DNA of 64,000 bases from a virus (Duplodnaviria > Heunggongvirae > Uroviricota > Caudoviricetes): positions 1,823 through 65,822 of IMG/VR virus record IMGVR_UViG_2687453454_000003. The stretch is one strand, 5' to 3'. The notes under the pieces were generated by a model. That model had not been told where the DNA came from, searched no databases, and worked only from the letters and a program-made list of their open reading frames with translations. The position numbers were made by a program, and so were the translations under genes. Below, piece by piece: positions 16,174-62,632 of the stretch (the first letter of the stretch is position 1; each line of letters begins with the position of its first letter).

Positions 16174-16219
16174 TGGTGCCGATAATAGGAGTCGAACCTA
16201 CGACCTTCGCATTACGAAT
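16174..16219. repeat. att site: 46-bp perfect direct repeat of the tRNA-Thr 3' end (attR of prophage A; tRNA-proximal att of element B)
   Basis: tggtgccgataataggagtcgaacctacgaccttcgcattacgaat is identical at 16174-16219 and 62557-62602; identity ends where the intact tRNA continues. Confidence 0.9.
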
Positions 16220-16642
16220 TATAAGAATCCGCTTCTAATTCAAAGCATTACCCCATCAACACTGCGCTCACACGCCCCACCACATCAAAACATGTAAAGC
16301 CTTGCAAGCCATTGTGAGGCCTTATGTGTCTCAGTTTTGTCCCACCTTGTATTATGACTTGCATAGCCACTGAAGATAAACGTGACGACAAACAGCGCAG
16401 CAGTCTTCTTTTCTTTCACACTTTCCCCAATCAGCATACATACCTTCTACCATAACTGTAGTGAATGTCTGTTATGAGCGAGGGGCGGAAGTTCGGAATG
16501 CATACTTACTTCGATGTGTGTTAAGCAATGGGGGCAGGTCGGCAATTTATTGTAAAAGCGATAACACTAACAGCATTAGTGAAGAGGCTAAAGATTTGTT
16601 TAGAACCCGCCCCCTTAAGAGGCGGTATTCTTGGCAAACATT

Positions 16643-19600
16643 TTATTTACTGTTTATCAATTGCAATAATGGGATCTCAGCTACATCACTAGGAATATAG
16701 GGGTCATCTTCTTTTAAATTAACCCCAATACAATCAACATCATTTAACCCAATTTCCCAAGCCCACCTAACATCTAACGTACTCATTTCTATCCCTAAAC
16801 TATCTCTTTGTGGATGCTCAGGAACAATATTTTTTAACATCGCATCACATCCAAGATAGAATTTTCCACAGGCCTGATACGCAGCAAGAAATCTTTCTAA
16901 ATTGACGTTACTATCAGGAGTCATCGTATTAATTCTACTGATCATTGTCATTCTTTTAGTTAATGGCGTTGTCATCATATTTTCAGATATCAGCACTCTA
17001 TAATGATTTGGGTTTTTAACTGAAATACCCTTGACAATACAAACCCGTAATCTGGCTTTACTATCTACCAAGCCTACTGATGATATAAGATCTTTAAAAA
17101 TATCCTCACCTATATTGGGGTGTTTAAATAATAGATATAACCCTGGATAACACGATTTTAATTGAGCGAAGCCTACTCCTTGCCAGCGTGTTCTATCCCA
17201 TAGACGAGGCTTGATTAGACTTTGTATTGAATAATCTTTATGCGTTATATTTTCGGAATTAAGTTCCTCTTCAGGCATTATTCCTTTACCAGGTGTTGGA
17301 ACATTTACATCCTCGATCTCCAACACTTTCGGAAATTCACTATCCCAGGGTTTATCTCTTAAAAGAGGGTAAGTTTTCTTTTCAGCACTGGTGGAATAAA
17401 TTTTCTTAATTTGTTGATCAATATCATTTCCAAGAACATTTTCAATAGCTTTGATACAGGCACCGAAACTAATTGCTCTGTCAAATGCAGCATCTTCGAA
17501 TATCATTCTTTCAATGTATTCTGTATTTTTTGTAAAAAATAACTCAGGGAGAAGATCAAATACTATTTTCTTGAATTCATTAGTAATTTTTTGTTGAGCA
17601 TCGACTCTAAATGAACTTGTTTCAAAACCATTGCAATTTATAGTAAGGTTTAGTTTTCCATTATTGCTATTTATTTCATGTGATAAGGAGAAGTCATCTT
17701 CATCATCTGCTATTACTTCAATAATTAAAAATGCTTCTTTCAGATGGATGTTATCAATCGTACAAGTTGCAAAAGCACTCTCTAAAAGCGCTAAGATACT
17801 AGTTGAAAACTCTATAAATGGTGACCGATTCGGAAAGTTAATTTCTATAGTGCATCCAAAAATAAAAGATGTATATATTCCTCGTTTATCATAGTTATCT
17901 TTTATTCCTTTACTATTGAATCCAGCATCAAAGTCACGTATTTCTTGCAAGAAATCATTATGATCTTTATCGGCAGTAACTTCATACTCATGTTCAAAAT
18001 TTTCAATATAACCTAAAGCATATTTAAGACATCCAGATGATACAAAAAGACCTAATCTATCGAGTTCATCGGGAATATTACTCTGTCGATTTATTCCATT
18101 TAGGTCAGTGTTCAAAATGAGTTGACTTATGTAAAAATCAACTTGCTGATTTTCTTTATCGCCGAACGAACTTTCACTGATATTTTGGTTAATTATTAAA
18201 AACAGTTCATACCATAAAAGAGCATGTGCTAATTTCCCTAGTTTTATTTCTGCCAGGCATAAACTATAATAAATCTCAGCCTGCTTTAATGATATCTCAT
18301 CATACTTCCAGTAGTTATCTGTAATCAAAGAAGCGGATAGAAGCAAGCATGAACGTGAACTCCATAGCAACCCAATGGATTCGTAAGCATAAGCAATAGC
18401 TTTTAATGCTAATATAAATTTATCTCGTGATTCCTCTTTATAGAGTGGTATAAATGATTTTCCTAAATACTTGATTGCCTGATAAGGGTGACCATTTTGA
18501 ATCCTCTTTATACCTCTTCGTAGATTTAATAATGCCCCTTTAACTTCACCACCTCTAACAGCAGATTGCTCAGTCATATAGTCTAATAAATTTTCATATG
18601 CATCTACCTCGAAAAAAATGTCATCCAGTTCGTTCAAAAGTTGGAAGTTCTTCTCAAAGGAATAGCCTATTAAATTCCCACTATTTTTAAAAATTTCATG
18701 TAACTCTTCAAATACAACCGAAGCATCTTCTACATCTGAAAACGTTGTCAATTTATAAATAGCTTTGTGAGTTCTCGCTGTGAGTGCATTACTGGGACGT
18801 GATTCATCGTCAGCTATCTCATCTAGTTTAGCAAGCATGTTACGTTCAATATTCTCAATATCGATTGTAGATGTTGCGTTGTTAAGTCTAATATAACTTT
18901 TATGAACGGTTACTAAATTTAAAACTTTCTCCCATTTTGAGGAATTAGTTGATGATGCAATACTTTCATATGCAAATTGAAGATTTTCTTCAAAGAGATT
19001 AAAATCTTCCATCCAAAAATGAGACTTCCAGGCATATTGATAATACGCATCTAGCAATTGTTGATTAGTCCCGAATTTCTTTGATATTTTTATAGCTCTT
19101 TCAAATAGACCTTGTGTTTCAATTAGTGGTTTCTCAAGTTCAGCGCTTAACTCTGCAATTTCTAAAAAAATATCCACCTGTTCATATGAAATTTCAGCAG
19201 GGTTTATTTTCTCTCTAATATACTCGGTTAACTCTTCATATTTTTTATGCTTTTTATAATCATTTTCTCCAAAAATAACTTCTCTTTTATATTGCGTTGG
19301 AACTGACAATGAATCAATGGCCAATTGCTCAAAATTATTTTTGTAAATTTGATCTAATAGCCAATTAATATCTAATATACGAACATCTATTCCAGTTTTT
19401 GTTTTTAGTGTATCCTCAACCTCTGAACGAATATTGGACTTTGCAGACTGGTTCGTTACGCAAAATACTTTAGCATACCCACGTTCTGTTTCTTTTATCT
19501 TAAGTACATCTTCATGGCATTTTTTCTTCCAGTCTTTACGTGTACTTACCGCAAAGGCCCAGCGTTCTCTATTTGATGCTTCATTAACGCCTTCGAACCA

Positions 19601-19894
19601 AAGAAGCTTATTCTGTTCTGAAACAGGGAATGTTTGTGTGTCAGTTTTACCATCCCCCCCTGCTACAGGGCCAGTTTGTTCAAGGAGATTAGGGCAAATT
19701 ATTTTTTCACATATTTTTTTTGCAAAATCTTCGAATTGTAGTTCTTGATTTCTTGTATTTAGCGTAGAGAGGAAGTGTTCCAGTACAACTCTGTCTAAAG
19801 TACCAGTCTCTCTGATTGTTGAATCAGAAAATTTTTCAGGGCGACGGCGCCTTAGAAATTCTTTAGATGAAAATTTGGTTTTCTGTACATTCAT
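16643..19894 (-). CDS. large hypothetical protein (1083 aa), AT-rich cargo; N-terminal domain of unknown type, central TPR-like helical repeats, C-terminal domain
   Basis: ORF track; ATG at 19894 preceded by AGAGGAG SD; much lower GC than the tail genes; no P-loop, HKD or HEPN motif found by eye; helical-repeat-like segments (AYYQYAWKSHFW, ALKAIAYAYESIGLLW, EIYYSLCLAEIKLGKLAHALLWY). Confidence 0.6.
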   Translation of the reverse strand: MNVQKTKFSSKEFLRRRRPEKFSDSTIRETGTLDRVVLEHFLSTLNTRNQELQFEDFAKKICEKIICPNLLEQTGPVAGGDGKTDTQTFPVSEQNKLLWFEGVNEASNRERWAFAVSTRKDWKKKCHEDVLKIKETERGYAKVFCVTNQSAKSNIRSEVEDTLKTKTGIDVRILDINWLLDQIYKNNFEQLAIDSLSVPTQYKREVIFGENDYKKHKKYEELTEYIREKINPAEISYEQVDIFLEIAELSAELEKPLIETQGLFERAIKISKKFGTNQQLLDAYYQYAWKSHFWMEDFNLFEENLQFAYESIASSTNSSKWEKVLNLVTVHKSYIRLNNATSTIDIENIERNMLAKLDEIADDESRPSNALTARTHKAIYKLTTFSDVEDASVVFEELHEIFKNSGNLIGYSFEKNFQLLNELDDIFFEVDAYENLLDYMTEQSAVRGGEVKGALLNLRRGIKRIQNGHPYQAIKYLGKSFIPLYKEESRDKFILALKAIAYAYESIGLLWSSRSCLLLSASLITDNYWKYDEISLKQAEIYYSLCLAEIKLGKLAHALLWYELFLIINQNISESSFGDKENQQVDFYISQLILNTDLNGINRQSNIPDELDRLGLFVSSGCLKYALGYIENFEHEYEVTADKDHNDFLQEIRDFDAGFNSKGIKDNYDKRGIYTSFIFGCTIEINFPNRSPFIEFSTSILALLESAFATCTIDNIHLKEAFLIIEVIADDEDDFSLSHEINSNNGKLNLTINCNGFETSSFRVDAQQKITNEFKKIVFDLLPELFFTKNTEYIERMIFEDAAFDRAISFGACIKAIENVLGNDIDQQIKKIYSTSAEKKTYPLLRDKPWDSEFPKVLEIEDVNVPTPGKGIMPEEELNSENITHKDYSIQSLIKPRLWDRTRWQGVGFAQLKSCYPGLYLLFKHPNIGEDIFKDLISSVGLVDSKARLRVCIVKGISVKNPNHYRVLISENMMTTPLTKRMTMISRINTMTPDSNVNLERFLAAYQACGKFYLGCDAMLKNIVPEHPQRDSLGIEMSTLDVRWAWEIGLNDVDCIGVNLKEDDPYIPSDVAEIPLLQLINSK

Positions 19895-19956
19895 GATTTT
19901 GACGCTCCTCTTGCTATCGACAATAAACCTTTGTATGCATCAACTAGATTTATTGT

Positions 19957-20300
19957 TCATACTGCCTTTTTTTGAAGAAAAAATTGCGGAAGTCTATTTC
20001 TAGACAAGCTATCTATGTATTCACTATACCACTGCATCATCTGTTGTCTCCCTTCCAAATACTGTGCATGATTGTAAGCCCCGAGAATAGCGTTCTTATC
20101 CACATGTGCAAGTTGTGTTTCGAAACATGCAGAGTTGAATCCTTCTTCGTGCAGAATGGTACTCATTGTGTGACGAAAACCATGCCCCGTCAGCCTTCCT
20201 TTTTATCCTAATAGCTCAATTACCTGATTAATGCTTTCCTTTGAGATCGGCTTAGTACGATCATCACGTCCAATGAATACTATCGGATAGATGCACCTAA
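19957..20300 (-). pseudogene. integrase gene fragment (C-terminal about 115 codons of a P4-type integrase, with in-frame stop)
   Basis: Translation ...IGRDDRTKPISKESINQVIELLG*KGRLTGHGFRHTMSTILHEEGFNSACFETQLAHVDKNAILGAYNHAQYLEGRQQMMQWY aligns with the C-terminus of the 14794-16008 integrase (PGRNDPRKTMSEASINQVFKRIGYAGRVTGHGFRHTMSTILHEQGYN...); TAA replaces the Tyr codon; no N-terminal part. Confidence 0.7.
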
Positions 20301-20526
20301 TCTTATAACATCGTGTTTTCTATGTCCGTTCCTGGCACATAGCAGTCCTAGAGACAGTGGCGTAAAGTCATGGAGGATCGGTGGGAGGAGGCGCTAATCC
20401 TTTCATACAAAAATATGTAAAATCAATAACGGCTGTAAATCATTCAATACTCGCACTATCGGAAGTTCACCAGCCAGCCGCAGCACGTTATTGCATACAA
20501 CGTGTATGCGGCGTATCTCAAAACGA

Positions 20527-21111
20527 TTACTCCATTACAGGGACAGCAGGCCACTCAATATCCGGTGCTACTGATGTATCAACACGGTTCAGCAATACCC
20601 GATACTTTTTCCAGGCTGCCAGCAACGAGATTTCTTCCTCCGTTGCGATTTCCAGATCTACAGCATCCTGAAGTGGCGCAATATGCTCACTGGCTACCTG
20701 CATCAGGCTGTTTTTTGTTTCTTCCGCCTCCCGGATCCGGAACAGTTTTTCTGCTTCTGCATCTTTCACCCAGGCTGTGCCGTTCCACTTCTGAAACTCC
20801 CCTTCCGGCGATAACCAGGTAACATTTTCCGGTAACGGACCGAGTTCAGAAATAAATAACTCGTCTCCTGACGCTACGTCATAAACCGTTTTACCCCGAT
20901 GGTCTTCAACGAGATGCCACGATGCCTCATCACTGTTGAAAACAGCCACAAAGCCAGCAGGAATATCTGGTGGTGCAATATCGGTACTGTTTGCTGGCAG
21001 ACCTGTATGAGGCGGAATATATGCATCACCTTCACCAATAAATTCATTAGTTCCGGCCAGCAGATTATAAATTGTTATGGTCCGTGGTTGTTCACTCATT
21101 CTGAATGCCAT
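20527..21111 (-). CDS. tfa: tail fiber assembly protein
   Basis: 194 aa immediately downstream of the side tail fiber gene with overlapping stop/start; Tfa-like size and context. Confidence 0.75.
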
Positions 21112-24100
21112 TATGCAAGCCTCACAATATAGTTAAATGCGATGTTTTTGACGGTGTTTTCCGCGTTACCAGCAGCGTTAACGGTGATGGTGTGTCCATG
21201 CGAACCAATCGCAACGGAGTGCGTATGAGCACCAATACCGACAGTATGTGCATGTGCGCCTGCGCTTGCAGCAGTGCCGGACAGCGAGTGGGTATGAGCA
21301 CCATCTGATGATGTCTTCCCTGCATTACGAGTCTGGCCACTACCGCTTGTTGTGCTCATAATCCCCGCGCTTAGATTTGAAATCGCGGTATAACCATTAG
21401 GGAAAATGCTCGTGTTCGTGCCACCAAATGCACCGGAACTCTTGTGTTGGTGCGCACCGGCACTATTTGCTGTCCCGCTAATACTATGGGTATGCGCACC
21501 AGTGTTATTCGTGGATTTAGTGCCGTAATCAAACGATGATGTGGTTTTCGTACCCAAATCCGTACTGGATACGCTGGCGCTGTGGGTGTGCGATTTAATG
21601 CCGTCCTGTTCCTGAGACAATACGGCACGACCACTGGCGGGCTTGCCCTTAATCGTCCAGCCACGCATATCAGGGATCACGCCTGACGGATAAGCGGCCG
21701 CAAGTTTCGGGTAAGCAGATTTGTCAAAAGTCTGCCCCTGCATCAGGGCATAACCAGACGGAACGGTATCTGATGGCCACGGGATTGGTGCGCCGACTGG
21801 GTAGCTTTCTGGTGGAAGATTTTTCGAGGTATAAACTTCTGCCCAGTCTTCCTCAAAACCATAACCGTCTCTTGAAGAACGGTAGAACAGACCACCATTT
21901 CTGTAATGCGCCTTCATCTGCAGGGTCCGGCAACTTCCGACTCCGGTATAGAAGTTAACCAGAATATAGCTGTCGCCAGAGCGGGTGACATTGTAAGCGC
22001 CTGATTCGGCATTCCAGGGAACGCCACCATCCGCATCGGCATATGTATCCGTTGCCCTTCTGGCAAAAGCAGCCACATGCGCGGCGGTTAAAGTGATATC
22101 AGTAGAACCATCAAATGGAACACCGGATATTTTTCTTGCAGTCTGAAGTTTTGTAGCAGTTGCAGCATTACCAGTAGTGTTCTGATTACCCGTAGTGTTT
22201 ACACCTGGAAGGTTAATATTTGCAGAACCGTCGAAAACAACTCCACCGATAGATCTTGCCGTCTGCAATTTCGTGGCTGTACTTGCATTACCATTCAATG
22301 AACCAGTTAATCCACCTGTAACAGACAACGGACCTGAAACTGTTCCTCCGGTTGTTGGCAGTGCTCCAATATCTGATGGTGTAGGTTTCTGATGTGTGCT
22401 ATACATCGTATAAACAACACCATCGGTAACGCTGGAAGGCTTACTCGCTGAATATGTTGGCGATGTATAAACAGAAACTGTCGCATTTGCAGTACAATCC
22501 CAATGGATATTTACACGAGTCGCATAATTGCCAATCTCAACGTAAATATCATATGTATCGCCGGATGTGTTGATCCAGGCGAAATTCGTTAATCCGACGG
22601 CTGTACGCTTCCACAAAGCCCCGGTAATTCCTTTGGGGTTTCCATTGCCTGCTCGTAGAACCAGTTCTGAAATGCCTGCCTGATGTGGGGAACCGACGTT
22701 GTAACCAGCGCCACCAATCAATGCGATGTAAACGATGGAACTCGCTTGTGGCATGGTAACCGTAGCCAGTTTGAACCACCCAGCCCCGCCAGAGAAAGAC
22801 ATCGTTACTGAATTTAAAGTACCAATATCTTTCGGCGTTAATGTTATATCCGCAGTCAGTGCTTTTCCGTTAACTTTTCGGTTAGATGGCACCCTGCTAT
22901 TCGCATTGTCATTGGCTGCTTTAACTGCTTTTGGCGTTGCGGCCAGCGATTCACTGGTGCTATCAACAGCACTGCTAAGTTTCACAACACCTTTAGTTGT
23001 AAGGCTTGCGTCTTCCATCGCAACTGCACCGGCAATCTCTTCAGCACGATCAGCAGCAGCTTCCGCACGGGTCGCAGCGGATTCAGCAGCAGTTTTGCTC
23101 TGAGATGCTGCCGTCGCACTGCCTGCCGCCTCTGTTGCTTTCGTGGATGCCGTCGTGGCGCTGCCCTTCGCTGCTGACGCCTGTCTGGTCGCCTCATCTT
23201 TTGAAGCAGACGCAGATGATGCCGATGACGCTGCCGAACTGGCGGACGATGCGGCTGCCGTTTTTGAGGATTCTGCACGGGTTTCCGACGCTTTCGCATT
23301 CGTTTCGGATGTCTTCGCTGCGGAAGCAGACCTCGCTGCTGCGCTGGTCTGTTCAGTGGCTTCGCCAGCCTTCGTTGTGGCTGTTGAAGCAGACGATGCG
23401 GCACTTTCTGCCGATTTTCCGGCGGCGGTGGCACTGGCTGAGGCCTGCCCGGCACTTGTTGACGCTGCACTGGCAGATAATGCAGCCGCTGTTTTTGAGC
23501 CTGCCGCAGCTGAGGCGCTCTGTCCCGCTGCCGTTTCAGAAGACCTGGCGTTCGTCTCGGACGTTTTTGCCGCCTTCGCAGAATTTGCTGCCGCCGTTGC
23601 CGAGGAAGCGGCACTACTGGCGCTCGAGGCTGCGCTCGTTTCTGATGATTTCGCTGCCTCTTTTGAGGCCGCCGCATCCCGGGCTGAGGTGGCAGCTTCT
23701 GACGCTTTCGTGGTCGCGGTGGATGCAGAAGTGGCTGCAGATTGTTGTGACGCTGCAGCATTCGTTTCTGACGTTTTCGCCGCACCAGCACTGGTAGCCG
23801 CCGCGCTTTTTGAGGACTCTGCAGCGGCAGCACTTTTTGATGCTTCAGTAGCCTTTGTTGATGCCGTTCCTGCGCTGGAAGACGCTGACTGAGCCGACGT
23901 CGCGGCCTGCCCGGCTGATGTGCTGGCTGCACGTGCTGAGCCTGCAGCATCAGCCGCATGGGTTGCCGCCTCACGGGCTGATGTGCCGGCATCGCTGGCT
24001 GACTTCTTCGCGGCTGCCGTGTTCTGTGCCACCGCGGACGCGTTACGCTCCACCTCTTCCACCATCAGTTCAAAACGGCGCAGTGCCTCAGGACGGGCAT

Positions 24101-24395: not shown

Positions 24396-24453
24396 CCCAC
24401 AAAAAAGCCCGCCTGAACCGGCGGGCTGTCATAACACTGTGTTACCTGGCTAA

Positions 24454-25053: not shown

Positions 25054-25123
25054 AATTACCTCTCGCTTTTCTGCAATAAAAAAGGCGTCATTCCTGACGC
25101 CCTTTATTGGGGTTATAAATATT

Positions 25124-47135: not shown

Positions 47136-47281
47136 TTTAAGTTGTGTGGCGAAGTAACCACTCTTAACACGATACAATACTTTTTGCGTACGCGTTAAGA
47201 TTTTTTTATAATTACTTACCTTTCTCACACCAAATGTAAAAGCAATATTTTTTGATAATCCTGTTGTTTAAAGGGAATAGC

Positions 47282-50200
47282 ATGAAATCAATTGTACACT
47301 TATCCGACTTACACTTATCAGACTCAAAAAAATATGGTTTTCACTGGAAGAAAGCCAAAGAACTGGTCACAGTATTAGTTAATGATATACATTCATTAAG
47401 TAAAGAAAACAACCTCCAGATAGATGCCATTTTTTTTACTGGGGATTTAACGTTTTCTGGAACCAAAGAGCAATTTCAACTATTTGATGAACATTTCCTC
47501 TCTCCACTTATTCAAAAGCTGAACATCAGTAAAAAAAACATTTTTATAACCCCAGGCAATCATGATGTGGACAGAAGTAAAGTTCATCCACTTGAAAAAC
47601 AACTGCGAACTGGTTCGGACGAAAATTTCATATCATCATACTTTGATATGATAAATAATGGAGAGTATTCATGGGAACGTCTCTACGAGTACTGTGAATA
47701 TAATAAAACAATATTAGATCATCATTCTGATGTTGAACAATCTGGACGCATGATTACATGCTTTAAAGTAACAAACAAATTATACGTCGTTAGCGTAAAT
47801 AGCGCATGGTTAGCTATGGATGATAATGATATTGGTAACTTACGAATTACCCAAAAGCAAATTGATTTTATCAATCGTGCCAAAATACCTTCTGATGCAA
47901 AAATAATATTATTATGCCATCATCCTTTAGATTGGTTGAATAAGAATGATCGTGACATTTTTTCAACATTTATTGAAAAAAAAGTTTCAATGTTCTTTTT
48001 TGGTCATATGCATGATTTTAAACAAAAACTAGAATCTAGTTTTTGTGAAAACATCACCCTCTTTTTGCAAGCAGGAACTTTGGATACTAGTGAAAATGTA
48101 TCAGGCTATTCATTAATAAATTTTAATAGTTCAAATGTCATATCAGACGGAAGAATTTTTTATAGAAAATATAATAAAGAAAAAACATGCTATGAACCAT
48201 GGGAAGAAAGAGGAAATGGTGGTGTTTTTGATTTCACCACTGAGAAAACTCTAACTTTTGACTCTGAAAAATTTGCAACATTATCTAATGAGATTCTAGA
48301 GAAAACTGATAAGGATTTATTAATTAACATTGGAATCTCTGATGAAAAGAAAAAAAGTCTAAGAACCCTATTTACTGAACCAAATTTCCTTGAATTTGCT
48401 CTTGGAGCCATGCCTTCTATGGAGATTAAGTCCACACAAGAATTACTAGAAGGACGAAACAACCTTGTGATTGTAGGAAACCATAGCTCAGGTAAAACAT
48501 CTCTTTTAAAATACTTATTCATTAAGAGTCTAGAAAAACAGGCCAGCAAAGACTTCAGTAACTTTGCATTTTTCTTAGATTTAAATGCAATTGAATTAAA
48601 TAGCTTAAATACAATTGTAAGCGCATTATGTACACAATATTTCAATGCAGATTCGACCACATCTTTTGAAGAAAAAATTAAAAAAATGTTACATGAGGGA
48701 AGATGTGTTATATATATTGATAATCTGGACAATATAAATACAAAAGAACAATGTGTAATTTCTGATTTTTTTATAAAATTCAAAGAATGTAGATTTATCG
48801 TAACTGCTGGCTATAATAATTCAGATCTGGTAGTTAAAATATTATCAGATGAAAGCAAAGCTAAATTTCATGCAATTGCTATAGGTTCATTACGCAGATC
48901 TAATGTTCGCGATATTGTATCAAGATGGCACGACACAACATCACAAAATATAATATATAAAGAAATCACGCGAACAATCAACAATTCGCAACTTCCTCAT
49001 AATTATTTTACATACTCAATGCTTTTAGCTATTTATGAAGTTGATCATGACGTTAAAGGAATATTAAGTGAGTCTGATATTATAGAAAACTTCATAGAAA
49101 TTTTGCTTCGTAAACATTTTATGGATACTCCGCCTAATAAGCCACAATTTAAAGAACTTCGACATTTTCTTGGATATTTAGGATTTACATTATTCAAAAA
49201 CAAATGTAATTTTATTTCAAATAATGAACTTCTGCAGACTGCAATAATTTTCAATAGAGATACCATGCATGATTATCAAGTAGAAGACTATATAAAACCA
49301 TTAAAAGAATGTGGAATATTGAAAGAAGAGCTATGTAATGTGATTTTCTCGCAGCCTTGCTTTTTATACTATTCCATCGCTTATTTCATGAAGCATAACG
49401 AAGAGCTAAAGAAAGAAATTTTATCCGATAATAATTACCTACATCTACATAAAGTTATTGAATACTATTCATCGCAGAACTCATCTAGTCTTGATTTATT
49501 ATACTTACTTAAAAAGAAGACTAATGCAATCAAATCTTCTTTATCTGAACGAATGCTCGAAGATAAGGGAATAAATATTGAAGATATAAAGATTGAAGAC
49601 TCTAATACTTTCTCTATTTTAGATATGGTATCAACCCAAGATGATTTCGAAAAAAAGATAGAATCACTCCGTGCAGATAGAGAAAAAGATGACGCGCGAC
49701 TAGATGAATTATCACCTTTATCTGATAAAGATAAAAAAGCTAATATATCAAATGTTAGAGCTGAAGGTAATAATAATCTGTTACATGATCTTATTAACAC
49801 TTTATCTCTTTATGCAAGGGTATTCCGTAGTACTGAATTATCTATGGAAAGAGAAAATATATTAAATATATTTAATGACCTTGTAAAGGGTTATGTTTTT
49901 TACATGAAAGCGTCACTAGTACTAATGGATGATTCATTTGTTCTTCCAGTAATACTCCCTGCATTAGAAAAGAAAATGCAAGAGGATAAATTAACCGATA
50001 ACGAAAGGCAACGAGTTTTTGAAATGTTTAAACTAGTATTGTCTTTAGTTCGCTCAATGATCCCAAATAACATACAGTTTATTATGAGCAATGACTTAAG
50101 CTCGAAAAAACCACGTATTGCAAACATTATTACTGAATCAAAAGACTCAAATAGCAATCCTGTAGAAAAGGCTATTTTAACTTTCACCTTAATGGATATT

Positions 50201-50434
50201 AAAGATGAAATGGTTATACAATTAGCTAACGATTTAGCAAAGATACAAAACAAAGTTGTTCAAGAATCTCTTTTCTTCAAGATTAATCAAATTATAACAA
50301 GTAACTATGATTTAAAAAGAACTGAAGAAGAAGCATTGAAAGAGTTAGCAAAAAACATTGGCATTAAAAGAAAATTAATTCTCACACCCAAGATTAGTGA
50401 TGCCTTTAATACGTTAAACCGCATAGGACATTAA
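47282..50434 (+). CDS. metallophosphoesterase (calcineurin-like) + P-loop NTPase (STAND/NACHT-like) fusion protein, about 1050 aa, AT-rich; candidate anti-phage defence gene
   Basis: Phosphoesterase motifs in order: HLSDLH, GDLTFSG, GNHD, HHP, GHMH; Walker A VIVGNHSSGKTSLL; Walker B-like RCVIYIDNLD; long helical C-terminal region; ATG at 47282 with AAGGG SD (track start 47252 is TTG). Confidence 0.75.
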   Translation: MKSIVHLSDLHLSDSKKYGFHWKKAKELVTVLVNDIHSLSKENNLQIDAIFFTGDLTFSGTKEQFQLFDEHFLSPLIQKLNISKKNIFITPGNHDVDRSKVHPLEKQLRTGSDENFISSYFDMINNGEYSWERLYEYCEYNKTILDHHSDVEQSGRMITCFKVTNKLYVVSVNSAWLAMDDNDIGNLRITQKQIDFINRAKIPSDAKIILLCHHPLDWLNKNDRDIFSTFIEKKVSMFFFGHMHDFKQKLESSFCENITLFLQAGTLDTSENVSGYSLINFNSSNVISDGRIFYRKYNKEKTCYEPWEERGNGGVFDFTTEKTLTFDSEKFATLSNEILEKTDKDLLINIGISDEKKKSLRTLFTEPNFLEFALGAMPSMEIKSTQELLEGRNNLVIVGNHSSGKTSLLKYLFIKSLEKQASKDFSNFAFFLDLNAIELNSLNTIVSALCTQYFNADSTTSFEEKIKKMLHEGRCVIYIDNLDNINTKEQCVISDFFIKFKECRFIVTAGYNNSDLVVKILSDESKAKFHAIAIGSLRRSNVRDIVSRWHDTTSQNIIYKEITRTINNSQLPHNYFTYSMLLAIYEVDHDVKGILSESDIIENFIEILLRKHFMDTPPNKPQFKELRHFLGYLGFTLFKNKCNFISNNELLQTAIIFNRDTMHDYQVEDYIKPLKECGILKEELCNVIFSQPCFLYYSIAYFMKHNEELKKEILSDNNYLHLHKVIEYYSSQNSSSLDLLYLLKKKTNAIKSSLSERMLEDKGINIEDIKIEDSNTFSILDMVSTQDDFEKKIESLRADREKDDARLDELSPLSDKDKKANISNVRAEGNNNLLHDLINTLSLYARVFRSTELSMERENILNIFNDLVKGYVFYMKASLVLMDDSFVLPVILPALEKKMQEDKLTDNERQRVFEMFKLVLSLVRSMIPNNIQFIMSNDLSSKKPRIANIITESKDSNSNPVEKAILTFTLMDIKDEMVIQLANDLAKIQNKVVQESLFFKINQIITSNYDLKRTEEEALKELAKNIGIKRKLILTPKISDAFNTLNRIGH

Positions 50435-55931: not shown

Positions 55932-55940
55932 GACCGACCT

Positions 55941-56833: not shown

Positions 56834-57086
56834 GGCTTACCTCCTGTTCCTGTGGTTTAAACCCATTCTGGTTTTGGCTAGATTGAAAACGTGCCGGATA
56901 AAGAATCTGCATTTCGCTGATTTCACCCTTAAAAAAATTGGCCAGACGTTCTGCAAGATCGATAGATGGAATTTGTTCCAGTCTTTCAATACGACTCAGC
57001 GTCGCTGGATTGACCTGAACGCCAGCAGCAACATGCTGCAAAGTAAATCCGTGCGCCTTACGCACATTCCGTAATGGTGATTGCAT
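56826..57086 (-). CDS. cro: Cro-like HTH repressor (XRE family)
   Basis: 86 aa; HTH FTLQHVAAGVQVNPATLSRIERLEQIPSIDLAERLANFF; divergent from cI; GGAGG SD. Confidence 0.8.
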   Translation of the reverse strand: MQSPLRNVRKAHGFTLQHVAAGVQVNPATLSRIERLEQIPSIDLAERLANFFKGEISEMQILYPARFQSSQNQNGFKPQEQEVSRG

Positions 57087-57183
57087 ATAACCTCCACATA
57101 TTGCGTGATGAGCATATTATTTCACGCAAATATTTTGCGCAAGTTGATTTGCTTAACGCGCAATAAAGAAATGTAATAAACGC
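57087..57183. promoter_or_regulatory. OR-like operator/promoter region between cro and cI
   Basis: Dyads TTGCGTGA-N13-TCACGCAA (57101-57129), palindrome TTGCGCAA (57135-57142), and TTGCTTAACGCGCAA (57149-57163). Confidence 0.55.
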
Positions 57184-57876
57184 ATGAACATAGGAAACCG
57201 AGTCAGACAACTTCGCCAGGCGAAGAACATGAAAATCGCCGATCTCGCTGAAGCAATAGGAGTGGATGCGGCGAATATCTCACGCCTGGAAACAGGTAAG
57301 CAGAAACAATTCACTGAACAAGCCCTGAGTAATATTGCCAGGAGCTTAGGTGTTGATATTGCTGATCTCTTTACCTCAGACGTCAAAAGTAATACTGTAT
57401 GTAAAAACAGTATTAGTGAGGATGTTGCGCAGGTGAAGGATGTATTCCGTATTGAAATGCTGGATGTCAGTGCCAGTGCGGGAAATGGCCTTATCCAGGG
57501 CGGTGATGTCATTGATGTGATTCATGCCATTGAATACAGAACTGATAATGCTGTATCGATGTTTGGCGGACGGCCAGCCAATCACATTAAAGTTATCAAC
57601 GTTCGTGGGGACAGTATGTGTCCAACCATTGAGCCAGGAGATCTCATCTTCGTTGATGTCAGTATCAATCAGTTTGATGGAGATGGTATCTATGTATTTG
57701 GTTTTGATGATAAAATTTATGTCAAACGACTGCAAATGATACCTGACAAACTACTGGTGATTTCTGATAACCAGATTTACCGTGAATGGGGAATTACCAG
57801 CGAAAATGAACACCGGTTTATGGTCTTTGGAAAGGTCTTAATCAGCCAGTCACAAACCCTTAAGCGACACAATTAA
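57184..57876 (+). CDS. cI: CI-type prophage repressor (N-terminal HTH + C-terminal S24 LexA-like peptidase domain)
   Basis: 230 aa; HTH VRQLRQAKNMKIADLAEAIGVDAANISRLE; C-terminal autocleavage-domain features (VRGDSMCPTIEPGDLIFVD ... KRL). Confidence 0.9.
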   Translation: MNIGNRVRQLRQAKNMKIADLAEAIGVDAANISRLETGKQKQFTEQALSNIARSLGVDIADLFTSDVKSNTVCKNSISEDVAQVKDVFRIEMLDVSASAGNGLIQGGDVIDVIHAIEYRTDNAVSMFGGRPANHIKVINVRGDSMCPTIEPGDLIFVDVSINQFDGDGIYVFGFDDKIYVKRLQMIPDKLLVISDNQIYREWGITSENEHRFMVFGKVLISQSQTLKRHN

Positions 57877-57931
57877 CCCTTACCTCCTCATCAATTAGCC
57901 ACCCAAAGGTGGCTTTTCATCACCCTTTAAA

Positions 57932-57984
57932 TTGCATACCTCGCAACAAAAACACTTGCATAATGCGCAACTTCATTTTATCTT
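57932..57984 (+). promoter_or_regulatory. OL/pL-like region: two 15-bp TTGC-N7-GCAA dyads overlapping a candidate promoter
   Basis: TTGCATACCTCGCAA (57932-57946) and TTGCATAATGCGCAA (57956-57970); candidate -35 TTGCAT (57956-57961) and -10 TATCTT (57979-57984), 17-bp spacing. Confidence 0.45.
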
Positions 57985-58578
57985 TCTTTCCAGACAAACA
58001 AACAAGGTACTAACAAAATTTGGTTGTAACACGGCGTATGGCACATGCGTCGTTAGCGGTCTGGGGACGTTAAAGGGGACAATCCACTCCTTGCTCGGGC
58101 AAACAAACCAGGTAGCCGGAATGTGCAAGTCAATGATGATGCTGATAAGACGCCTAACCAGCGTGGCGATTCGGTTTGACGCCTGGGAAGAGACCAGGGT
58201 GCAACGATGAGGGCATTTATGGAGCCGCGACAAAGTGTGGTGCCGTAACTGGCTAAGTGCTCTCAGCGTTGTGGTAATCCGCGAAATGGCGCGGCGGTAA
58301 GTATGGCGGGGTTACTCTTTCCCCGTTGAGGACACCGGATTGTCAGGTTGACCATACGCCTGAGTGACAACCCCACCACAACAGCCACTGCTTTGGCGGT
58401 ACCAGCTTGTATCCTTGCTTCCGGCTGGTACCGTCCTTTTTACAAAACAGAGAAGAGCATCACCGGACGACGGGCTCATAACCCAATCCATCCGGGCGGC
58501 TGCCACCGCAGGTGTTCTTCTCTGTTTTGTGGAGAAACCAACCGACTTTGCAGGGTCGATATGATGAGGAGCAGCAAA

Positions 58579-58941
58579 ATGGCTAGCGAACGCAGTACTG
58601 ATGTGCAGGCATTTATCGGGGAGCTGGACGGCGGCGTATTTGAAACCAAAATCGGCGCAGTTCTCAGTGAAGTCGCTTCCGGTGTGATGAACACGAAAAC
58701 CAAAGGGAAGGTCTCACTCAACCTGGAAATCGAACCATTTGATGAGAACCGTGTGAAAATCAAACACAAACTCTCATATGTTCGCCCGACTAACCGCGGG
58801 AAAATTTCCGAAGAAGACACCACCGAAACGCCGATGTATGTCAATCGCGGTGGTCGCCTGACTATTCTGCAGGAAGACCAGGGACAATTACTGACTCTTG
58901 CCGGTGAACCTGACGGAAAACTCCGCGCAGCAGGTCATTAA
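58579..58941 (+). CDS. hypothetical early-left protein (120 aa)
   Basis: ATG at 58579 with AGGAG SD; upstream part of the track ORF (from 58348) judged non-coding. Confidence 0.4.
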   Translation: MASERSTDVQAFIGELDGGVFETKIGAVLSEVASGVMNTKTKGKVSLNLEIEPFDENRVKIKHKLSYVRPTNRGKISEEDTTETPMYVNRGGRLTILQEDQGQLLTLAGEPDGKLRAAGH

Positions 58942-59005
58942 TACGTTATTAATAAACTGATTATTTATCTCATCACTGAATATCTTTATATAGTGAGGAC
59001 TTATT

Positions 59006-59830
59006 ATGTCTCAGAACTTAGACGCAACCGCAATTAATCAAATCCATGCCCTTATTTCTGCTCAGGGTGTTAATGAAATTATCAGTAAGATTGGTGCCGA
59101 TGCTGTGGCATTGCCTGAGAATTTCCGCATTCATGATCTGGAAAAATTTAATTTAAATCGCTTCCGTTTCCGTGGTGCGCTTTCCACTGCCAGCATCGAT
59201 GACTTTACCCGTTATTCTAAAGATCTTGCAGATGAAGGCACCCGCTGCTTTATCGATGCTGATAATATGCGTGCCGTCAGTGTGCTTAACCTGGGTACTA
59301 TTGATGAACCAGGTCACGCAGATAACACCGCCACTCTCAAACTGAAAAAGACAGCACCGTTCTCTGCACTGTTGTCTGTTAACGGCGAGCGTAACTCCCA
59401 GAAGTCTCTGGCAGAATGGATTGAAGACTGGGCCGACTACCTTGTGGGCTTTGATGCTAATGGTGATGCCATTCAGGCAACAAAAGCGGCTGCGGCGGTC
59501 CGTAAAATCACGATTGAAGCAAACCAGACCGCTGATTTTGAAGATAATGACTTCAGCGGCAAACGCTCCCTGATGGAGTCTGTCGAAGCGAAGACCAAAG
59601 ACATTATGCCAGTGGCATTTGAGTTTAAATGCGTTCCGTTTGAAGGTCTGAAAGAACGTCCGTTTAAATTACGCCTCAGCATTATCACTGGCGATCGTCC
59701 GGTACTGGTTCTGCGCATTATTCAGCTGGAAGCGGTGCAGGAAGATATGGCTAACGAATTTCGTGATCTGCTTGTTGAGAAATTCAAGGACAGCAAAGTA
59801 GAAACCTTTATTGGGACTTTCACCGCCTGA
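59006..59830 (+). CDS. yfdQ: YfdQ-like protein (DUF2303-type)
   Basis: 274 aa, same length and gene-order context as recalled for E. coli CPS-53 yfdQ, preceding an HD-domain gene; assignment from memory. Confidence 0.5.
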
Positions 59831-59957
59831 TTTCATTACTGCAAATGCCCCTGCGGGGGCATTTATGGAAATGTAATTGACTCAATAATCGCCGGACGGT
59901 GAGGGCTTCCTTTTACCCGAATTCAGCGCGGTGCAGCGCATATACGTGGAGAACAAA

Positions 59958-60494
59958 ATGTCATTTATTAAAACTTTTTCCGGGAAGCATTTTTATTATG
60001 ACAGGATAAATAAAGACGACATCGATATTAACGATATCGCAGTTTCCCTTTCAAATATCTGTCGCTTTGCCGGTCATCTTTCGCACTTCTACAGCGTCGC
60101 CCAACATGCGGTTCTTTGCAGCCAGCTGGTGCCGCAGGAATTTGCTTTTGAAGCGTTAATGCATGATGCAACAGAAGCGTATTGCCAGGACATTCCCGCA
60201 CCACTGAAACGCCTTCTTCCTGACTATAAACAAATGGAAGAAAAAATAGACGCCGTAATCCGTGAGAAATACGGGTTACCCCCAGTTATGAGTACGCCCG
60301 TGAAATATGCCGATCTCATCATGCTGGCAACCGAACGCCGCGATCTCGGGCTTGATGATGGCTCTTTCTGGCCTGTACTGGAAGGTATCCCGGCAACAGA
60401 GATGTTCAACGTGATTCCACTGGCACCGGGCCATGCCTACGGGATGTTTATGGAACGCTTTAACGAGTTATCGGAGTTACGCAAATGCGCATGA
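59958..60494 (+). CDS. yfdR: HD-domain phosphohydrolase (YfdR-like 5'-deoxynucleotidase)
   Basis: 178 aa from the internal ATG at 59958; HD motif residues (H...HD...D: AQHAVLCSQ, MHDATEAY); size/order match to yfdR as recalled. Confidence 0.6.
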   Translation: MSFIKTFSGKHFYYDRINKDDIDINDIAVSLSNICRFAGHLSHFYSVAQHAVLCSQLVPQEFAFEALMHDATEAYCQDIPAPLKRLLPDYKQMEEKIDAVIREKYGLPPVMSTPVKYADLIMLATERRDLGLDDGSFWPVLEGIPATEMFNVIPLAPGHAYGMFMERFNELSELRKCA

Positions 60495-60847
60495 ATGTTT
60501 TCGAAATGGAAGGGTTTCTTCGTGGGAGATGTGTACCGCGAGATCTGAAAGTAAATGAAACAGATGCTGAATACCTGGTACGTAAATTCGATGCGCTTGA
60601 AGCTAAATGTGCAGCACAGGAAAACAAAGTAATACCAGTGTCAACTGAACTGCCACCAGCAAATGAAAGTGTTTTGTTATTCGATGCTAACGGAGAAGGC
60701 TGGCTAATTGGCTGGCGTTCTCTCTGGTACACCTGGGGACAAAAAGAAACCGGAGAATGGCAGTGGACATTTCAGGTCGGGGACCTTGAAAACGTCAATA
60801 TCACTCCCTGGGCAGTAATGCCAAAAGCACCGGAGGCTGGAGCATAA
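60485..60847 (+). CDS. YfdS-like hypothetical protein (120 aa)
   Basis: Size and order after the HD gene; overlaps upstream gene by 10 nt. Confidence 0.45.
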   Translation: MRMNVFEMEGFLRGRCVPRDLKVNETDAEYLVRKFDALEAKCAAQENKVIPVSTELPPANESVLLFDANGEGWLIGWRSLWYTWGQKETGEWQWTFQVGDLENVNITPWAVMPKAPEAGA

Positions 60848-61152
60848 TGACCACTTTTACCGACAAAGAACTGATTAAAGAAATTAAAGAGCGTATCAGC
60901 AGCCTTGACGTGCGAGACGATATTGAGCGCCGTGCTTATGAAATCGCACTCCTATCTCTAGAAGTAGAACCAGATGAACGCGAAGCTTATGAATTATTCA
61001 TGGAAAAGCGTTTCGGTGACTTAGTAGATCGTCGGAGAGCAAAAAACGGCGATAACGAATACATGGCATGGGATATGACTCTCGGTTGGATCGTCTGGCA
61101 GCAACGAGCTGGTATCCATTTTTCAACAATGTCACAGCAAGAGGTGAAATAA
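60847..61152 (+). CDS. YfdT-like hypothetical protein (101 aa)
   Basis: Size and order; ATGA-type coupling to the next gene. Confidence 0.45.
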   Translation: MTTFTDKELIKEIKERISSLDVRDDIERRAYEIALLSLEVEPDEREAYELFMEKRFGDLVDRRRAKNGDNEYMAWDMTLGWIVWQQRAGIHFSTMSQQEVK

Positions 61153-61502
61153 TGGAGCCATACAGCCTCACACTCGATGAGGCCTGTCATTTTCTCAAGA
61201 TATCCAGACCGACTGCCATTAACTGGATACGCACAGGGCGTCTTCAGGCAACACGCAAAGATCCCACTAAGAATAAATCTCCTTACCTCACAACACGACA
61301 AGCCTGCATTGCGGCTCTTCAGTCTCCGCTGCATACTGTCCAGGTGAGCGCGGGTGATGGCATAACAGAGGAAAGAAAATGTCACTCTTCCGCAGAGGTG
61401 AAATATGGTACGCCAGTTTCACATTGCCGAACGGTAAAAGATTTAAACAGTCTCTTGGAACAAAGGACAAAAGGCAGGCGACAGAACTCCATGACAAGCT
61501 AA
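61152..61502 (+). CDS. xis: excisionase-like HTH protein (Xis/AlpA-type)
   Basis: Start at internal ATG 61152; [29 protein letters not shown]; overlaps the int start, as xis-int commonly do; C-terminal extent uncertain. Confidence 0.5.
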
Positions 61503-62542
61503 AGGCTGAAGCATGGCGGGTCAGCAAACTTGGTGAAATACCTGATATAACGTTCGAGGAAGCGTGTGTCAGGTGGCTTGAAGAGAAAGCACATAAAAAA
61601 TCACTGGACGATGACAAAAGCCGGATCGGATTCTGGCTTCAACATTTCGCAGGAATGCAACTAAGAGACATTACTGAATCAAAAATTTATTCAGCAATGC
61701 AGAAAATGACGAACCGGCGTCATGAGGAAAACTGGAAACTTAGGGCAGAAGCATGCAGAAAAAAAGGGAAACCTGTTCCAGAATACACGCCAAAACCAGC
61801 GTCCGTTGCAACGAAGGCTACGCATCTTTCATTTATAAAGGCCCTACTAAGAGCCGCAGAGCGTGAATGGAAAATGCTGGATAAGGCACCAATTATTAAA
61901 GTGCCTCAACCAAAGAATAAACGGATCCGCTGGCTGGAGCCCCATGAAGCACAAAGGCTGATTGATGAATGTCCGGAGCCATTAAAGTCTGTTGTTGAAT
62001 TTGCACTGGCAACAGGCTTAAGACGCTCGAACATCATCAACCTTGAATGGCAACAAATAGATATGCAGCGCCGGGTGGCATGGATAAATCCGGAAGAGAG
62101 TAAATCAAACCGCGCAATCGGCGTTGCGCTGAATGATACTGCATGTCGCGTTTTGAAAAAACAAATCGGGAATCATCACCGTTGGGTATTTGTGTACAAG
62201 GAAAGCTGTACCAAACCAGACGGAACGAAAGCGCCAACAGTAAGGAAGATGCGGTATGACGCAAACACAGCCTGGAAAGCGGCGCTGAGACGGGCTGGTA
62301 TTGATGATTTCAGATTTCACGACTTGAGACACACCTGGGCAAGTTGGCTGGTTCAAGCCGGAGTCCCGTTGTCAGTGTTACAGGAAATGGGAGGCTGGGA
62401 GTCTATCGAAATGGTTCGTCGATATGCTCACCTTGCACCTAATCACCTTACCGAACACGCACGGCAAATAGACTCGATCCTGAACCCATCGGTCCCAAAT
62501 TTGTCCCAGTCAAAAAATAAGGAAGGTACTAATGACGTGTAA
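61379..62542 (+). CDS. int: tyrosine integrase of the lambdoid prophage
   Basis: 387 aa; N-terminus [31 protein letters not shown] typical of phage integrases; catalytic region [15 protein letters not shown]...VRRYAHL; ends 15 bp from the tRNA 3' end. Confidence 0.9.
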
Positions 62543-62556
62543 CTTATTGATTTAAA

Positions 62557-62632
62557 TGGTGCCGATAATAGGAGTCGAACCTACGACCTTCGCATTACGA
62601 ATGCGCTGCTCTACCAACTGAGCTATATCGGC
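62557..62632 (-). tRNA. thrW: tRNA-Thr (anticodon CGU), thrW-type; its 3' 46 nt form the attachment-site core
   Basis: RC reads GCCGATATAGCTCAGTTGGTAGAGCAGCGCATTCGTAATGCGAAGGTCGTAGGTTCGACTCCTATTATCGGCACCA: 7-bp acceptor stem, D-loop, anticodon loop uuCGUaa, T-loop GGTTCGACTCC, 3' CCA. Confidence 0.95.

Follow-up and report, generated by a model that had tools for sequence, protein, structure and literature searches.

A P22/Sf-integrase prophage and a P4-integrase island in tandem at the thrW hotspot of Escherichia coli

The tRNA gene thrW, located downstream of proA, is the integration site of the Shigella flexneri phages SfI, SfII, SfIV, and SfV and of the Salmonella phage P22, with which the prophage described below has the att core and the P and P' arms of attP in common (PMC3306764, PMC3636060, PMC3851460). 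The att core is 46 nt long and has been published for SfI, SfII, SfV, SfX, and P22 (PMC3636060). In the Sf phages the integrase gene reads towards the att site and cargo genes adjoin the far att on its inner side. Experiments have shown that thrW can be occupied in tandem: when SfX is already resident, SfI inserts into its tRNA-side attL (PMC3306764). The thrW-yagP slot is also used by genomic islands, including CP4-6 in K-12, the vat island of APEC and UPEC, and PAI III536, and P4/CP4-57 islands at thrW have a P4-type integrase beside the tRNA 3' end and a short direct repeat at the far border. [quoted passage not shown]

We analysed a window of 64,000 nucleotides which is part of an E. coli chromosome nearly identical to that of strain EC26. 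An ARAGORN search of the whole window called a single tRNA gene, an intact tRNA-Thr(CGT) gene [thrW; 62557-62632, minus strand] that is identical to thrW of K-12 and has proA directly to its right. The last 46 nt of thrW (positions 31-76 of the tRNA, from the anticodon loop to the 3' end) are present exactly twice and without mismatches, at 62557-62602 and at 16174-16219, and the 46-mer had no match in 100 shuffles of the sequence. The perfect copy of the tRNA 3' end reported in a first-pass annotation of this DNA is thereby confirmed. The repeat without mismatches extends to 48 bp (16172-16219 and 62555-62602), consisting of the 46 nt and two flanking A's, and 51 of 52 nt match when the flanks are included. 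Both copies are the reverse complement of the published 46-nt core (ATTCGTAATGCGAAGGTCGTAGGTTCGACTCCTATTATCGGCACCA). The copy in thrW represents the tRNA-side att core (attL) and the internal copy the far-end att (attR) of the prophage that lies between them.

This prophage (16220-62556; 46,337 bp, GC 48.8%) is lambdoid and complete. According to the EC26 annotation it contains int, xis, early genes, immunity, replication, Q, lysis, terminase, head, lambda-type tail, tail fibre, and cargo genes; it is of the mEp460/phi458-like type with a complete lambda-type set of head, tail, lysis, and regulatory genes, and RusA is frameshifted in the EC26 copy. The structural half, from terminase to tail, is 96-98% identical at the DNA level to phages vB_EcoS-569R4, phi458, mEp460, and Ayreon over 80-88% of 24.5 kb. 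The prophage differs from these four phages in the cargo beside attP, the cargo between Q and the lysis genes and the tail-fibre modules. Compared to the Sf phages, the similarity is in the integration module and not in the virion genes, which are those of a lambda-like siphovirus of the mEp460/phi458 type.

The integrase gene (61379-62542, plus strand) encodes a protein of 387 aa in which the catalytic domain (Pfam Phage_integrase) was the only domain detected. As the first-pass annotation had stated, it adjoins the intact tRNA gene: it reads towards thrW and its stop lies 14 nt short of the tRNA 3' end. The protein belongs to the thrW-specific P22/Sf family and is 100% identical to the integrase of SfIV, 99.5% to those of SfII and phi458, 98.5% to that of SfV (98.5-99.5% for the SfI, SfII, and SfV integrases taken as a group) and 90% to the P22 group. 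An HTH protein whose gene overlaps the start of int (61152-61502, plus strand) is, from a position and annotation like those of SfIV/SfI xis, probably the excisionase of the prophage. The region 58394-62602 as a whole is 99% identical to SfIV. At the other end of the prophage, 16220-16345 aligns with the P' arm of the SfI attP (97.7% identity to SfIV and 89% to phi458, whose P' arm is related), and a weaker homology to phi458 extends to 16514. When the prophage ends were rejoined (62300-62602 and 16220-16345), the resulting sequence aligned without gaps to the SfI attP, which had been sequenced by PCR from the phage, with 420 of 428 positions identical. The SfIV record matches the rejoined ends as well. 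That record was made by joining prophage ends (PMC3851460) and could not serve as proof of a free attP; the SfI attP was used in its place.

Where the Sf phages have gtrABC, this prophage has a cassette of two parts. The gene for a protein of 1083 aa (16643-19894, minus strand, GC 33%) is probably a defence gene. At its upstream edge the cassette contains a scar of a P4-type integrase gene (19955-20304, minus strand), consisting of about 105 C-terminal codons with an internal stop; the encoded residues correspond to positions 287-391 of such an integrase and are 63% identical to the 404-aa integrase described below. A second low-GC (30%) cargo gene (47252-50434, plus strand) encodes a protein with metallophosphoesterase and NACHT/STAND domains (PADLOC PDC-S60, E 2.6e-97; Pfam Metallophos and NACHT), for which the score against NCBIfam DS8_antiphage was below the cut-off.

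To the left of the internal att copy lies an island of 19,694 bp, of which the window holds positions 1-16171. The island extends about 3.5 kb further to the left, and the sequence of this left end was taken from EC26 and EM03-18-08 and not from the window's own source. Over the 19,694 bp, the island is 99.985% identical to that of EM03-18-08, which directly abuts thrW. The integrase gene (14794-16008, minus strand) encodes a protein of 404 aa of the P4/CP4-57 type (Pfam Arm-DNA-bind_3, Phage_int_M, and Phage_integrase; NCBIfam PRK09692, E 7e-90). It starts 165 nt from the internal att copy and reads away from it, and the encoded protein shows no significant similarity to the 387-aa integrase (29% over 52 aa, E 0.01); on both points the earlier description of a distinct P4-type integrase adjoining the internal repeat was correct. 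The island integrase is a protein other than K-12 IntF, whose gene is located at the far end of CP4-6. The att core of the island consists of the last 17-19 nt of thrW (positions 60-76). The search for a third att copy left of the window that the first-pass annotation had proposed was successful: a degenerate outer copy (TGGTGC-GATAATAGGA; positions 13999-14014 of locus L001) matching 16 of 17 nt lies about 3.5 kb left of the window and forms the far att of the island. The copies in thrW, at the internal junction and at the outer end are all in one orientation.

Additional genes of the island encode an AlpA-family regulator/excisionase (13375-13572, minus strand; Pfam Phage_AlpA, E 9e-20), a primase with Zn-ribbon, Toprim, and DUF927 domains (6143-8902, minus strand; Pfam), Ash and AntA/B. 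A cluster of TGAACCAAC iterons, read directly from the sequence, is located downstream of the primase gene (5990-6125), and a second, inverted cluster is found about 1.4-1.5 kb left of the window with a 65-bp inverted match to 6061-6124. Transposon ends were considered for this match and rejected, as the sequences are the TGAACCAAC iteron clusters themselves and are closer to the ori/crr pairs of P4; the clusters are a putative replication origin. The block at 723-5380 (minus strand) comprises P22-type genes 14, 7, 20, and 16, which encode head morphogenesis and ejection proteins (PHROGs 651, 598, and 917; RefSeq P22-gp16/gp17 family). Gene 16 is frameshifted in the window by a 1-bp deletion relative to EM03-18-08. 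It is interrupted by an IS in EC26, where ISEc22 has inserted with an 8-bp target duplication at window positions 2614-2621; this insertion is absent from the window. Between the ejection-gene block and the primase gene, and near 20300-21500, only short chance matches to the att sequence were found, and therefore neither the P22-type block nor the integrase scar was retained as a separate att-bounded element.

A circular form corresponding to the island was present in public data. The IMG/VR contig 2617270975_000009 (21,415 bp), which originates from another strain, is a perfect circular permutation of the island and joins the integrase-side flank, TGGTGCCGATAATAGGA and the distal flank, which is the predicted attP of the island. 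This contig could in principle be a collapsed tandem duplication and not a free circle. The outer att of the island is one C short compared to the circular attP, and excision of this island copy may therefore be impaired.

The internal copy is the correct border between prophage and island. Its right flank is the P' arm of SfI/SfIV, its left flank is the island flank that abuts thrW in strains with the island only, and its first 17-19 nt double as the integrase-side att of the island. It is thus a junction common to both elements, each of which retains its own att pair and its own integrase. Genomes with other occupancy states of thrW agree with this division. In EM03-18-08, which has the island alone, the flank GATGTTTGAA followed by TGGTGCC is identical to window positions 16164-16173 and abuts thrW. 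In GZ04-0086 and CUPS03, which have the phage alone, the phage lies directly beside the LysR' fragment and the junction consists of the native flank CTCTTTGATTTTAA and the 46-nt core. The 5.3-kb pao flank is 100% identical across tandem, island-only and phage-only genomes. The reconstructed empty site was found with 100% identity over 1,093 nt in each of 12 listed genomes and was covered at ≥80% in 818 of 5,426 genomes, so that the comparison with empty-site strains suggested in the first-pass annotation yielded, on an identical backbone, the empty site and also either element by itself. The tandem junction was covered at ≥80% in 163 of the 5,426 genomes, representing about 3% of complete E. 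coli genomes, and the junction of the reverse arrangement was found in at least six genomes, for example CP131_Sichuan. In XJW9B263 and BN01 the island is 100% identical and the phage half varies.

The genomes with a single element or an empty site, the match to the SfI attP, the circular island contig and the third att copy together indicate that the two elements are independent, and we consider it very likely that the locus is a tandem array at the thrW-yagP hotspot of E. coli which arose by two separate site-specific integrations. The proposal in the first-pass annotation that two elements with different integrases entered the same tRNA 3' end holds insofar as the elements are independent and their tyrosine integrases unrelated; it needs correction insofar as the att sub-sites differ, since the phage uses a 46-nt core from the anticodon loop to the 3' end and the island the last 17-19 nt. 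The array corresponds to the tandems defined by Islander, with Int387 paired with the 46-nt copy and the outer 16-nt copy belonging to Int404, in the same orientation. It shows no essential difference from them, its two members using an anticodon-loop and a T-loop/3' end sub-site, respectively.

A chance match or an assembly artefact as the origin of the repeat has a probability close to nil, given the result of the shuffles and the presence of the same junctions in independent complete genomes. The region could also be one composite element of about 66 kb that reaches from the outer copy to thrW and moves as a unit, leaving the internal repeat as an inert relic. Recombination between the 17-nt core in thrW and the outer copy by the island integrase is conceivable in principle, and co-transferable phage-ICE tandems have been described in Streptococcus (PMC13651849). 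However, there are genomes of the same backbone in which one or the other half occupies thrW by itself, public data contain a separate attP form for each half and the phage half differs among strains with a 100% identical island (XJW9B263 and BN01), which makes a composite highly improbable. The degraded P4-type integrase fragment that the first-pass annotation had recognized at the prophage end is real, and together with the 1083-aa gene (16220-20304) it might be what is left of a third P4-type island that had inserted at thrW, between the phage and the 19.7-kb one. The orientation of the fragment is the one expected of a tRNA-side P4-type integrase, and the cassette recurs in IMG/VR locus L019 behind an intact P4 integrase of the thrW type. 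Four observations argue against three elements and leave this reading very improbable: the cassette is inside the phage, whose own P' arm (16220-16345) is located further out; the cassette is present in phage strains that lack the island; in the Serratia locus L012 the scar also lies upstream of a homologue of the 1083-aa gene, in an island at tRNA-Arg, with 82.6% DNA identity over scar and gene; and there is no att copy near 20300-21500. Judged from these sequence comparisons, the scar is part of a mobile cargo cassette and not the relic of a third integration at thrW in this strain, and the suggestion that it hints at repeated recombination at the locus was not upheld. The 1083-aa protein, in which D81, K83 and D85 are conserved, is uncharacterised and occurs in defence-island contexts.

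In the tandem array of two elements, the P22/Sf-family Int and Xis of the phage would recombine attP with thrW, the phage-borne copy would restore the tRNA gene and the displaced 46 nt would stay behind as the internal repeat at 16174-16219. The island, with its P4-type integrase, would use the last 17-19 nt of thrW, so that its integrase-side att now lies inside the internal repeat and its far att is the degenerate 16-nt copy left of the window. The order of these events is probably island first and phage second, the phage having entered the regenerated thrW and moved the island away from the tRNA. The same order had been proposed in the first-pass annotation; it is plausible in view of the SfI/SfX precedent and of the distal element being the more degraded one in each of the arrays that were compared (the window, CP131_Sichuan, and ABU 83972), and it is unproven by sequence because the junctions are identical under both orders. 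The pao flank, identical in all genomes, does not discriminate either. The outer copy of the island lacks the anticodon-loop part and thus cannot be used by the phage. In the reverse order, the phage lysogenised an empty thrW and the island then entered the displaced 46-nt copy and not the intact tRNA gene. This copy retains the full 17-19-nt core of the island and its native downstream flank and is apparently a usable target, and the pao flank of the window is matched at 100% identity both in genomes with the phage only and in genomes with the island only. Against it, in CP131_Sichuan and NRZ105822, where entry of the island into a lysogen is inferred, the island is on the tRNA side; SfI likewise picked the tRNA-side site in the experiment (PMC3306764); and decay has gone further in the island than in the phage, gene 16 being damaged in both the window and EC26. 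We regard the reverse order as credible but unlikely. The comparative evidence suggests that both elements are mobile, and presumably both are still active in this strain.

Compared to other islands at thrW, the island shares the slot, the P4-type integrase beside the tRNA 3' end and the short repeat at the far border, and in ABU 83972 the same island is in tandem with the vat island. It differs from them in gene content, namely AlpA, Ash, AntA/B, the DUF927 primase, the iterons and the P22-type 14/7/20/16 block. With P4-like satellites and Gram-negative PICIs it shares the integrase, AlpA, a primase with nearby iterons and a circular form. It differs from them in its P22-type ejection-protein genes, and no psu, delta, sid or capsid/packaging-redirection genes were found among the island ORFs by Pfam, PHROGs, and RefSeq annotation, several small ORFs having no match at all. 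A census of satellites does not mention ejection-protein genes (PMC10085698), and in the literature searched we found no paper linking phage satellites or PICIs with ejection proteins, except for one review which names both in passing.

The arrangement at thrW is real but ordinary and of an already recognised kind, combining a known hotspot, the classical P22/Sf integration module and the catalogued class of tandem arrays; SfI and SfX form such a pair with a second phage as partner, where here the partner is a P4-integrase island. It has some textbook value as a case in which two unrelated integrases act on different sub-sites of a single tRNA gene, and public genomes supply every intermediate: the empty site, each element alone, both tandem orders and the free attP forms. 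For annotation, it places the border at the internal 46-nt copy, and the integrase fragment is not to be counted as a third element. Two side observations, the 1083-aa gene and the island with P22-type ejection-protein genes, are perhaps worth more than the array itself. Since an integrase-3' scar travels with the 1083-aa gene, conserved integrase 3' ends may act as recombination handles by which defence cargo is shuttled among islands and phages. The P4-type Int/AlpA/primase replicon, the two iteron clusters, the circular form and the P22-type ejection genes are what a satellite reading draws on. It is a speculative and rather doubtful proposal, taken together with the handles, that the island represents an undescribed kind of phage satellite with its own genes 14, 7, 20, and 16, for which co-residence at thrW is adaptive. 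If it were true, the island, by occupying the tRNA gene used by phages with a P22/Sf integrase, would come to lie immediately outside the far att of such a helper and within reach of headful packaging from an unexcised P22-like prophage, and because packaging would reach it there, co-residence of the two elements at thrW would be adaptive and not accidental.

The window was found to be E. coli chromosome, with 99.96-100% identity to strain EC26 (NZ_CP060880.1), from which it differs by an ISEc22 insertion in EC26 and by single-base indels. DNA to the left of the window was read from the EC26 locus (L001), in which position 17536 is window position 1. The sole tRNA gene called by ARAGORN [tRNA-Thr(CGT); 62557-62632 (-)] is identical to K-12 thrW and has proA directly to its right. 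The perfect 46-bp repeat of the thrW 3' end reported in the first-pass annotation was confirmed, as the 46-mer has exactly two copies (16174-16219 and 62557-62602) and gave 0 matches in 100 of 100 shuffles. It corresponds to tRNA positions 31-76, a stretch that opens with the final base of the anticodon stem, takes in the anticodon loop and ends at the terminal CCA, and the perfect repeat extends to 48 bp (16172-16219 = 62555-62602). Two distinct integrases had been placed at the tRNA and at the internal copy, in agreement with their positions, domains and comparison. A gap of 14 nt separates the end of the 387-aa integrase ORF [Int387; 61379-62542 (+)] from the tRNA 3' end. The ORF of the 404-aa integrase [Int404; 14794-16008 (-)] points away from the internal copy, with its start at a distance of 165 nt. 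Int404 contains Arm-DNA-bind_3, central and catalytic domains and matches PRK09692 (P4/CP4-57 type), only a catalytic domain was found in Int387, and any relationship between the two is confined to the catalytic core.

Int387 is identical (100%) to the integrase of Shigella phage SfIV, and shares 99.5% identity with those of SfII and coliphage phi458, 98.5% with SfV and 90% with the P22 group. The att core of SfI is 46 nt long and identical in SfII, SfV, SfX and P22 (PMC3636060); this published core is the reverse complement of the window repeat. The phage attP was rebuilt in silico by joining 62300-62602 to the sequence from 16220 onwards, and matched the SfI attP region, which was PCR-amplified from phage, at 420 of 428 positions without gaps. 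Homology in the P' arm, which starts at 16220, extends to 16345 and, more weakly in phi458, to 16514. The match of the rejoined ends to the SfI attP, together with the P' arm homology, indicates that 16174-16219 is the far att site of the phage. The phage body (16220-62556) was annotated as a complete lambda-type genome, its terminase-to-tail half being 96-98% identical to the isolated phages vB_EcoS-569R4, phi458, mEp460 and Ayreon, and 58394-62602 shares 99% identity with SfIV. The right-hand element is a mosaic lambdoid phage with a classical thrW integration module. Between its Q antiterminator and methyltransferase/lysis genes lies a 1060-aa gene [47252-50434 (+); 30% GC], the second low-GC gene of the phage, encoding a metallophosphoesterase plus NACHT/STAND protein, which had a match to PADLOC candidate PDC-S60 (E 2.6e-97) and one to NCBIfam DS8_antiphage below the cut-off.

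The left-hand element is an island of 19,694 bp, 99.985% identical between EC26 and strain EM03-18-08. In EM03-18-08, the same Int404 (identical protein accession) directly adjoins intact thrW with no phage in between, and the island flank (...GATGTTTGAA followed by TGGTGCC) equals window 16164-16173. A third att copy, which the first-pass annotation had suggested looking for left of the window, was found in both EC26 and EM03-18-08: the far end of the island, about 3.5 kb left of the window, carries a degenerate att (TTGATTTTAA followed by TGGTGC-GATAATAGGA; 16 of 17 nt) that adjoins a LysR-type fragment and paoD (L001 13999-14014). One C is missing from the outer att (TGGTGC-GATAATAGGA) in every integrated example of the P4-type thrW islands, despite differing flanks (loci L001 13999-14014, L003 5326, L027 3574, L010 3838 and L015), and the circular island junction has both Cs and the full 17 nt. 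The island encodes Int, a DUF6387 protein, AlpA, an AntA/B-like protein, an Ash-family protein, a Zn-ribbon/Toprim/DUF927 primase, a block of P22-type genes 14, 7, 20 and 16, PerC, a second AlpA-like protein and a pRiA4b-ORF3 protein. Psu, Sid and Delta were not found among these genes, and we therefore call the element a P4-integrase island and not a P4-like satellite. Most of it is present in at least 214 complete E. coli genomes.

The P22-type genes encode ejection proteins [723-5380 (-)] and are intact in several island copies, among which their pN/pS, based on few substitutions, is 0-0.58 and resembles that of int and primase. Since the block is absent from the island variant of strain CP131_Sichuan, it is an accessory module. 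Among the papers searched, none was found that ties satellites to ejection proteins, apart from one review naming both in passing. Gene 16 (723-2827) has no IS in the window, where a 1-bp deletion causes a frameshift relative to EM03-18-08; in EC26 it is interrupted by ISEc22 (IS66-family), flanked by a target duplication of 8 bp (window 2614-2621). The block is bordered on both sides by a cluster of TGAACCAAC iterons; the two clusters are inverted relative to each other and about 7.5 kb apart, one just downstream of the primase gene (5990-6125) and the other about 1.4-1.5 kb left of the window (L001 16030-16150). They recall ori and crr, the paired replication-origin sites of phage P4.

Each element also occurs without the other. 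For the comparison with empty-thrW strains proposed earlier, an empty site was reconstructed from the LysR' flank, thrW and proA: all 12 genomes listed matched it at 100% over 1,093 nt, and at least 80% of it was covered in 818 of 5,426 genomes. The phage is present alone in GZ04-0086 and CUPS03, directly beside the LysR' fragment, and at the junction there the native flank CTCTTTGATTTTAA leads into the complete 46-nt core and then the same P' arm. The island is present alone in EM03-18-08, and the 5.3-kb pao flank is 100% identical across tandem, island-only and phage-only genomes. The tandem junction (island flank, core and P' arm) was covered for at least 80% in 163 of the 5,426 genomes, and its version with the window's 1083-aa cargo gene was found in six. 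The reverse order (thrW, island, core, Sf-type int) was found in at least six genomes; in CP131_Sichuan (L028) the island lies on the tRNA side and the distal Sf-int prophage is cut off by IS1. The predicted island attP pattern matched one IMG/VR contig [IMGVR_UViG_2617270975_000009 (loci L022 and L014); 21,415 bp], whose sequence is the island in perfect circular permutation, with an extra 1.7-kb segment carrying IS3-family transposase ORFs inserted at window 5739-5743. Beginning at window 13780, the contig descends to the distal end, crosses the junction (GAGATGTTTGAA, TGGTGCCGATAATAGGA and ACAATACAC in succession) and ends at window 13781. This is evidence that the island exists in another strain as a free circle, or as a tandem duplication. 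Junctions from other strains thus match the repeat, which goes against the refutation named in the first-pass annotation, a repeat without matching excision junctions. The empty, single, tandem and reverse states and the island attP are evidence of two units that move independently; the tandem array is real, and its reading as tandem integration of two elements is right.

Int387 and Int404 use different sub-sites within one tRNA gene. In thrW, the phage identity block is 46 nt long and reaches from the anticodon loop as far as the 3' end; that of the island is confined to tRNA positions 60-76, from the end of the T-loop to CCA, a length of 17 nt that rises to 19 if two flanking A's are counted. 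That integrase subfamilies differ in preferred sub-location within tRNA genes is reportedly established, through work of Williams from 2002. The same classes of sub-location are given in the Islander paper (PMC4383910). Each integration restores thrW while leaving a displaced fragment behind, and the internal copy doubles as the far att of the phage and the integrase-side att of the island.

The first-pass annotation had the phage enter after the island. An island entering the displaced copy of the phage would give the same sequence, so the junctions cannot decide the order; three indirect arguments favour the order proposed, and we consider it likely that the island entered first. With SfX already resident, SfI was shown experimentally to insert into the tRNA-side attL of SfX (PMC3306764), which favours island-first entry. 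The outer 16-nt copy of the island is unusable by the phage, and reverse-order arrays must therefore have formed in lysogens, by entry of the island into their intact tRNA; these arrays show that newcomers take the tRNA side, again favouring prior entry of the island. Decay is further advanced in the distal element in the window as well as in CP131_Sichuan and ABU 83972, which points the same way.

A degraded P4-type integrase fragment had been taken as a hint of repeated recombination at this locus. The fragment is real [19955-20304 (-)], consisting of the last ~105 residues with an internal stop, and shares 63% identity with Int404. Its position is within the phage, proximal to the P' arm of the phage itself, and phage-only strains carry it together with the adjacent 1083-aa gene [16643-19894 (-)]. 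This cassette (~16448-20345; GC 35%) recurs in several IMG/VR contigs in varied contexts. A Serratia contig carries, in order, tRNA-Arg(TCT), an intact P4-type integrase, the C-terminal scar of a second integrase (SQLAHVD*NTVRVTYNHAQYLEGRREMMQWYSDYIASLS), a 1083-aa gene with 83% identity, and Gabija-like, HNH and TIR genes, and its DNA is 82.6% identical to the window from within the scar to past the 1083-aa gene. Because the same scar and gene occur in Serratia, phage-only strains and other contigs, the scar travels with the 1083-aa gene. The fragment was rejected as a relic of a third integration at this site on its position inside the phage, its presence in phage-only strains, the recurrence of the cassette in other contigs and its sharing with Serratia. 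The 1083-aa protein had no match in Pfam, NCBIfam, PADLOC or PDB sequences; its homologues, at least 760 in number, are uniform in length and spread across Gammaproteobacteria, and elsewhere its gene neighbours defence genes. In DETEC-E223 (L008), a different P4-type island adjoins a lambdoid phage with Avs2 in the same cargo slot.

The general idea of recurrent events at thrW is fair, as the locus shows repeated accretion and decay across genomes, for example in the arrays of ABU 83972 and NRZ105822. The island lies beside the vat island in ABU 83972 (L026) and beside a remnant of a P22-family int in NRZ105822 (L027). This kind of array is well known, since thrW is a recognised integration hotspot (PMC7545054), K-12 has CP4-6 in the same thrW slot, and tandem arrays in which every member has an integrase and a tDNA fragment of its own have been catalogued as a class (PMC4383910).
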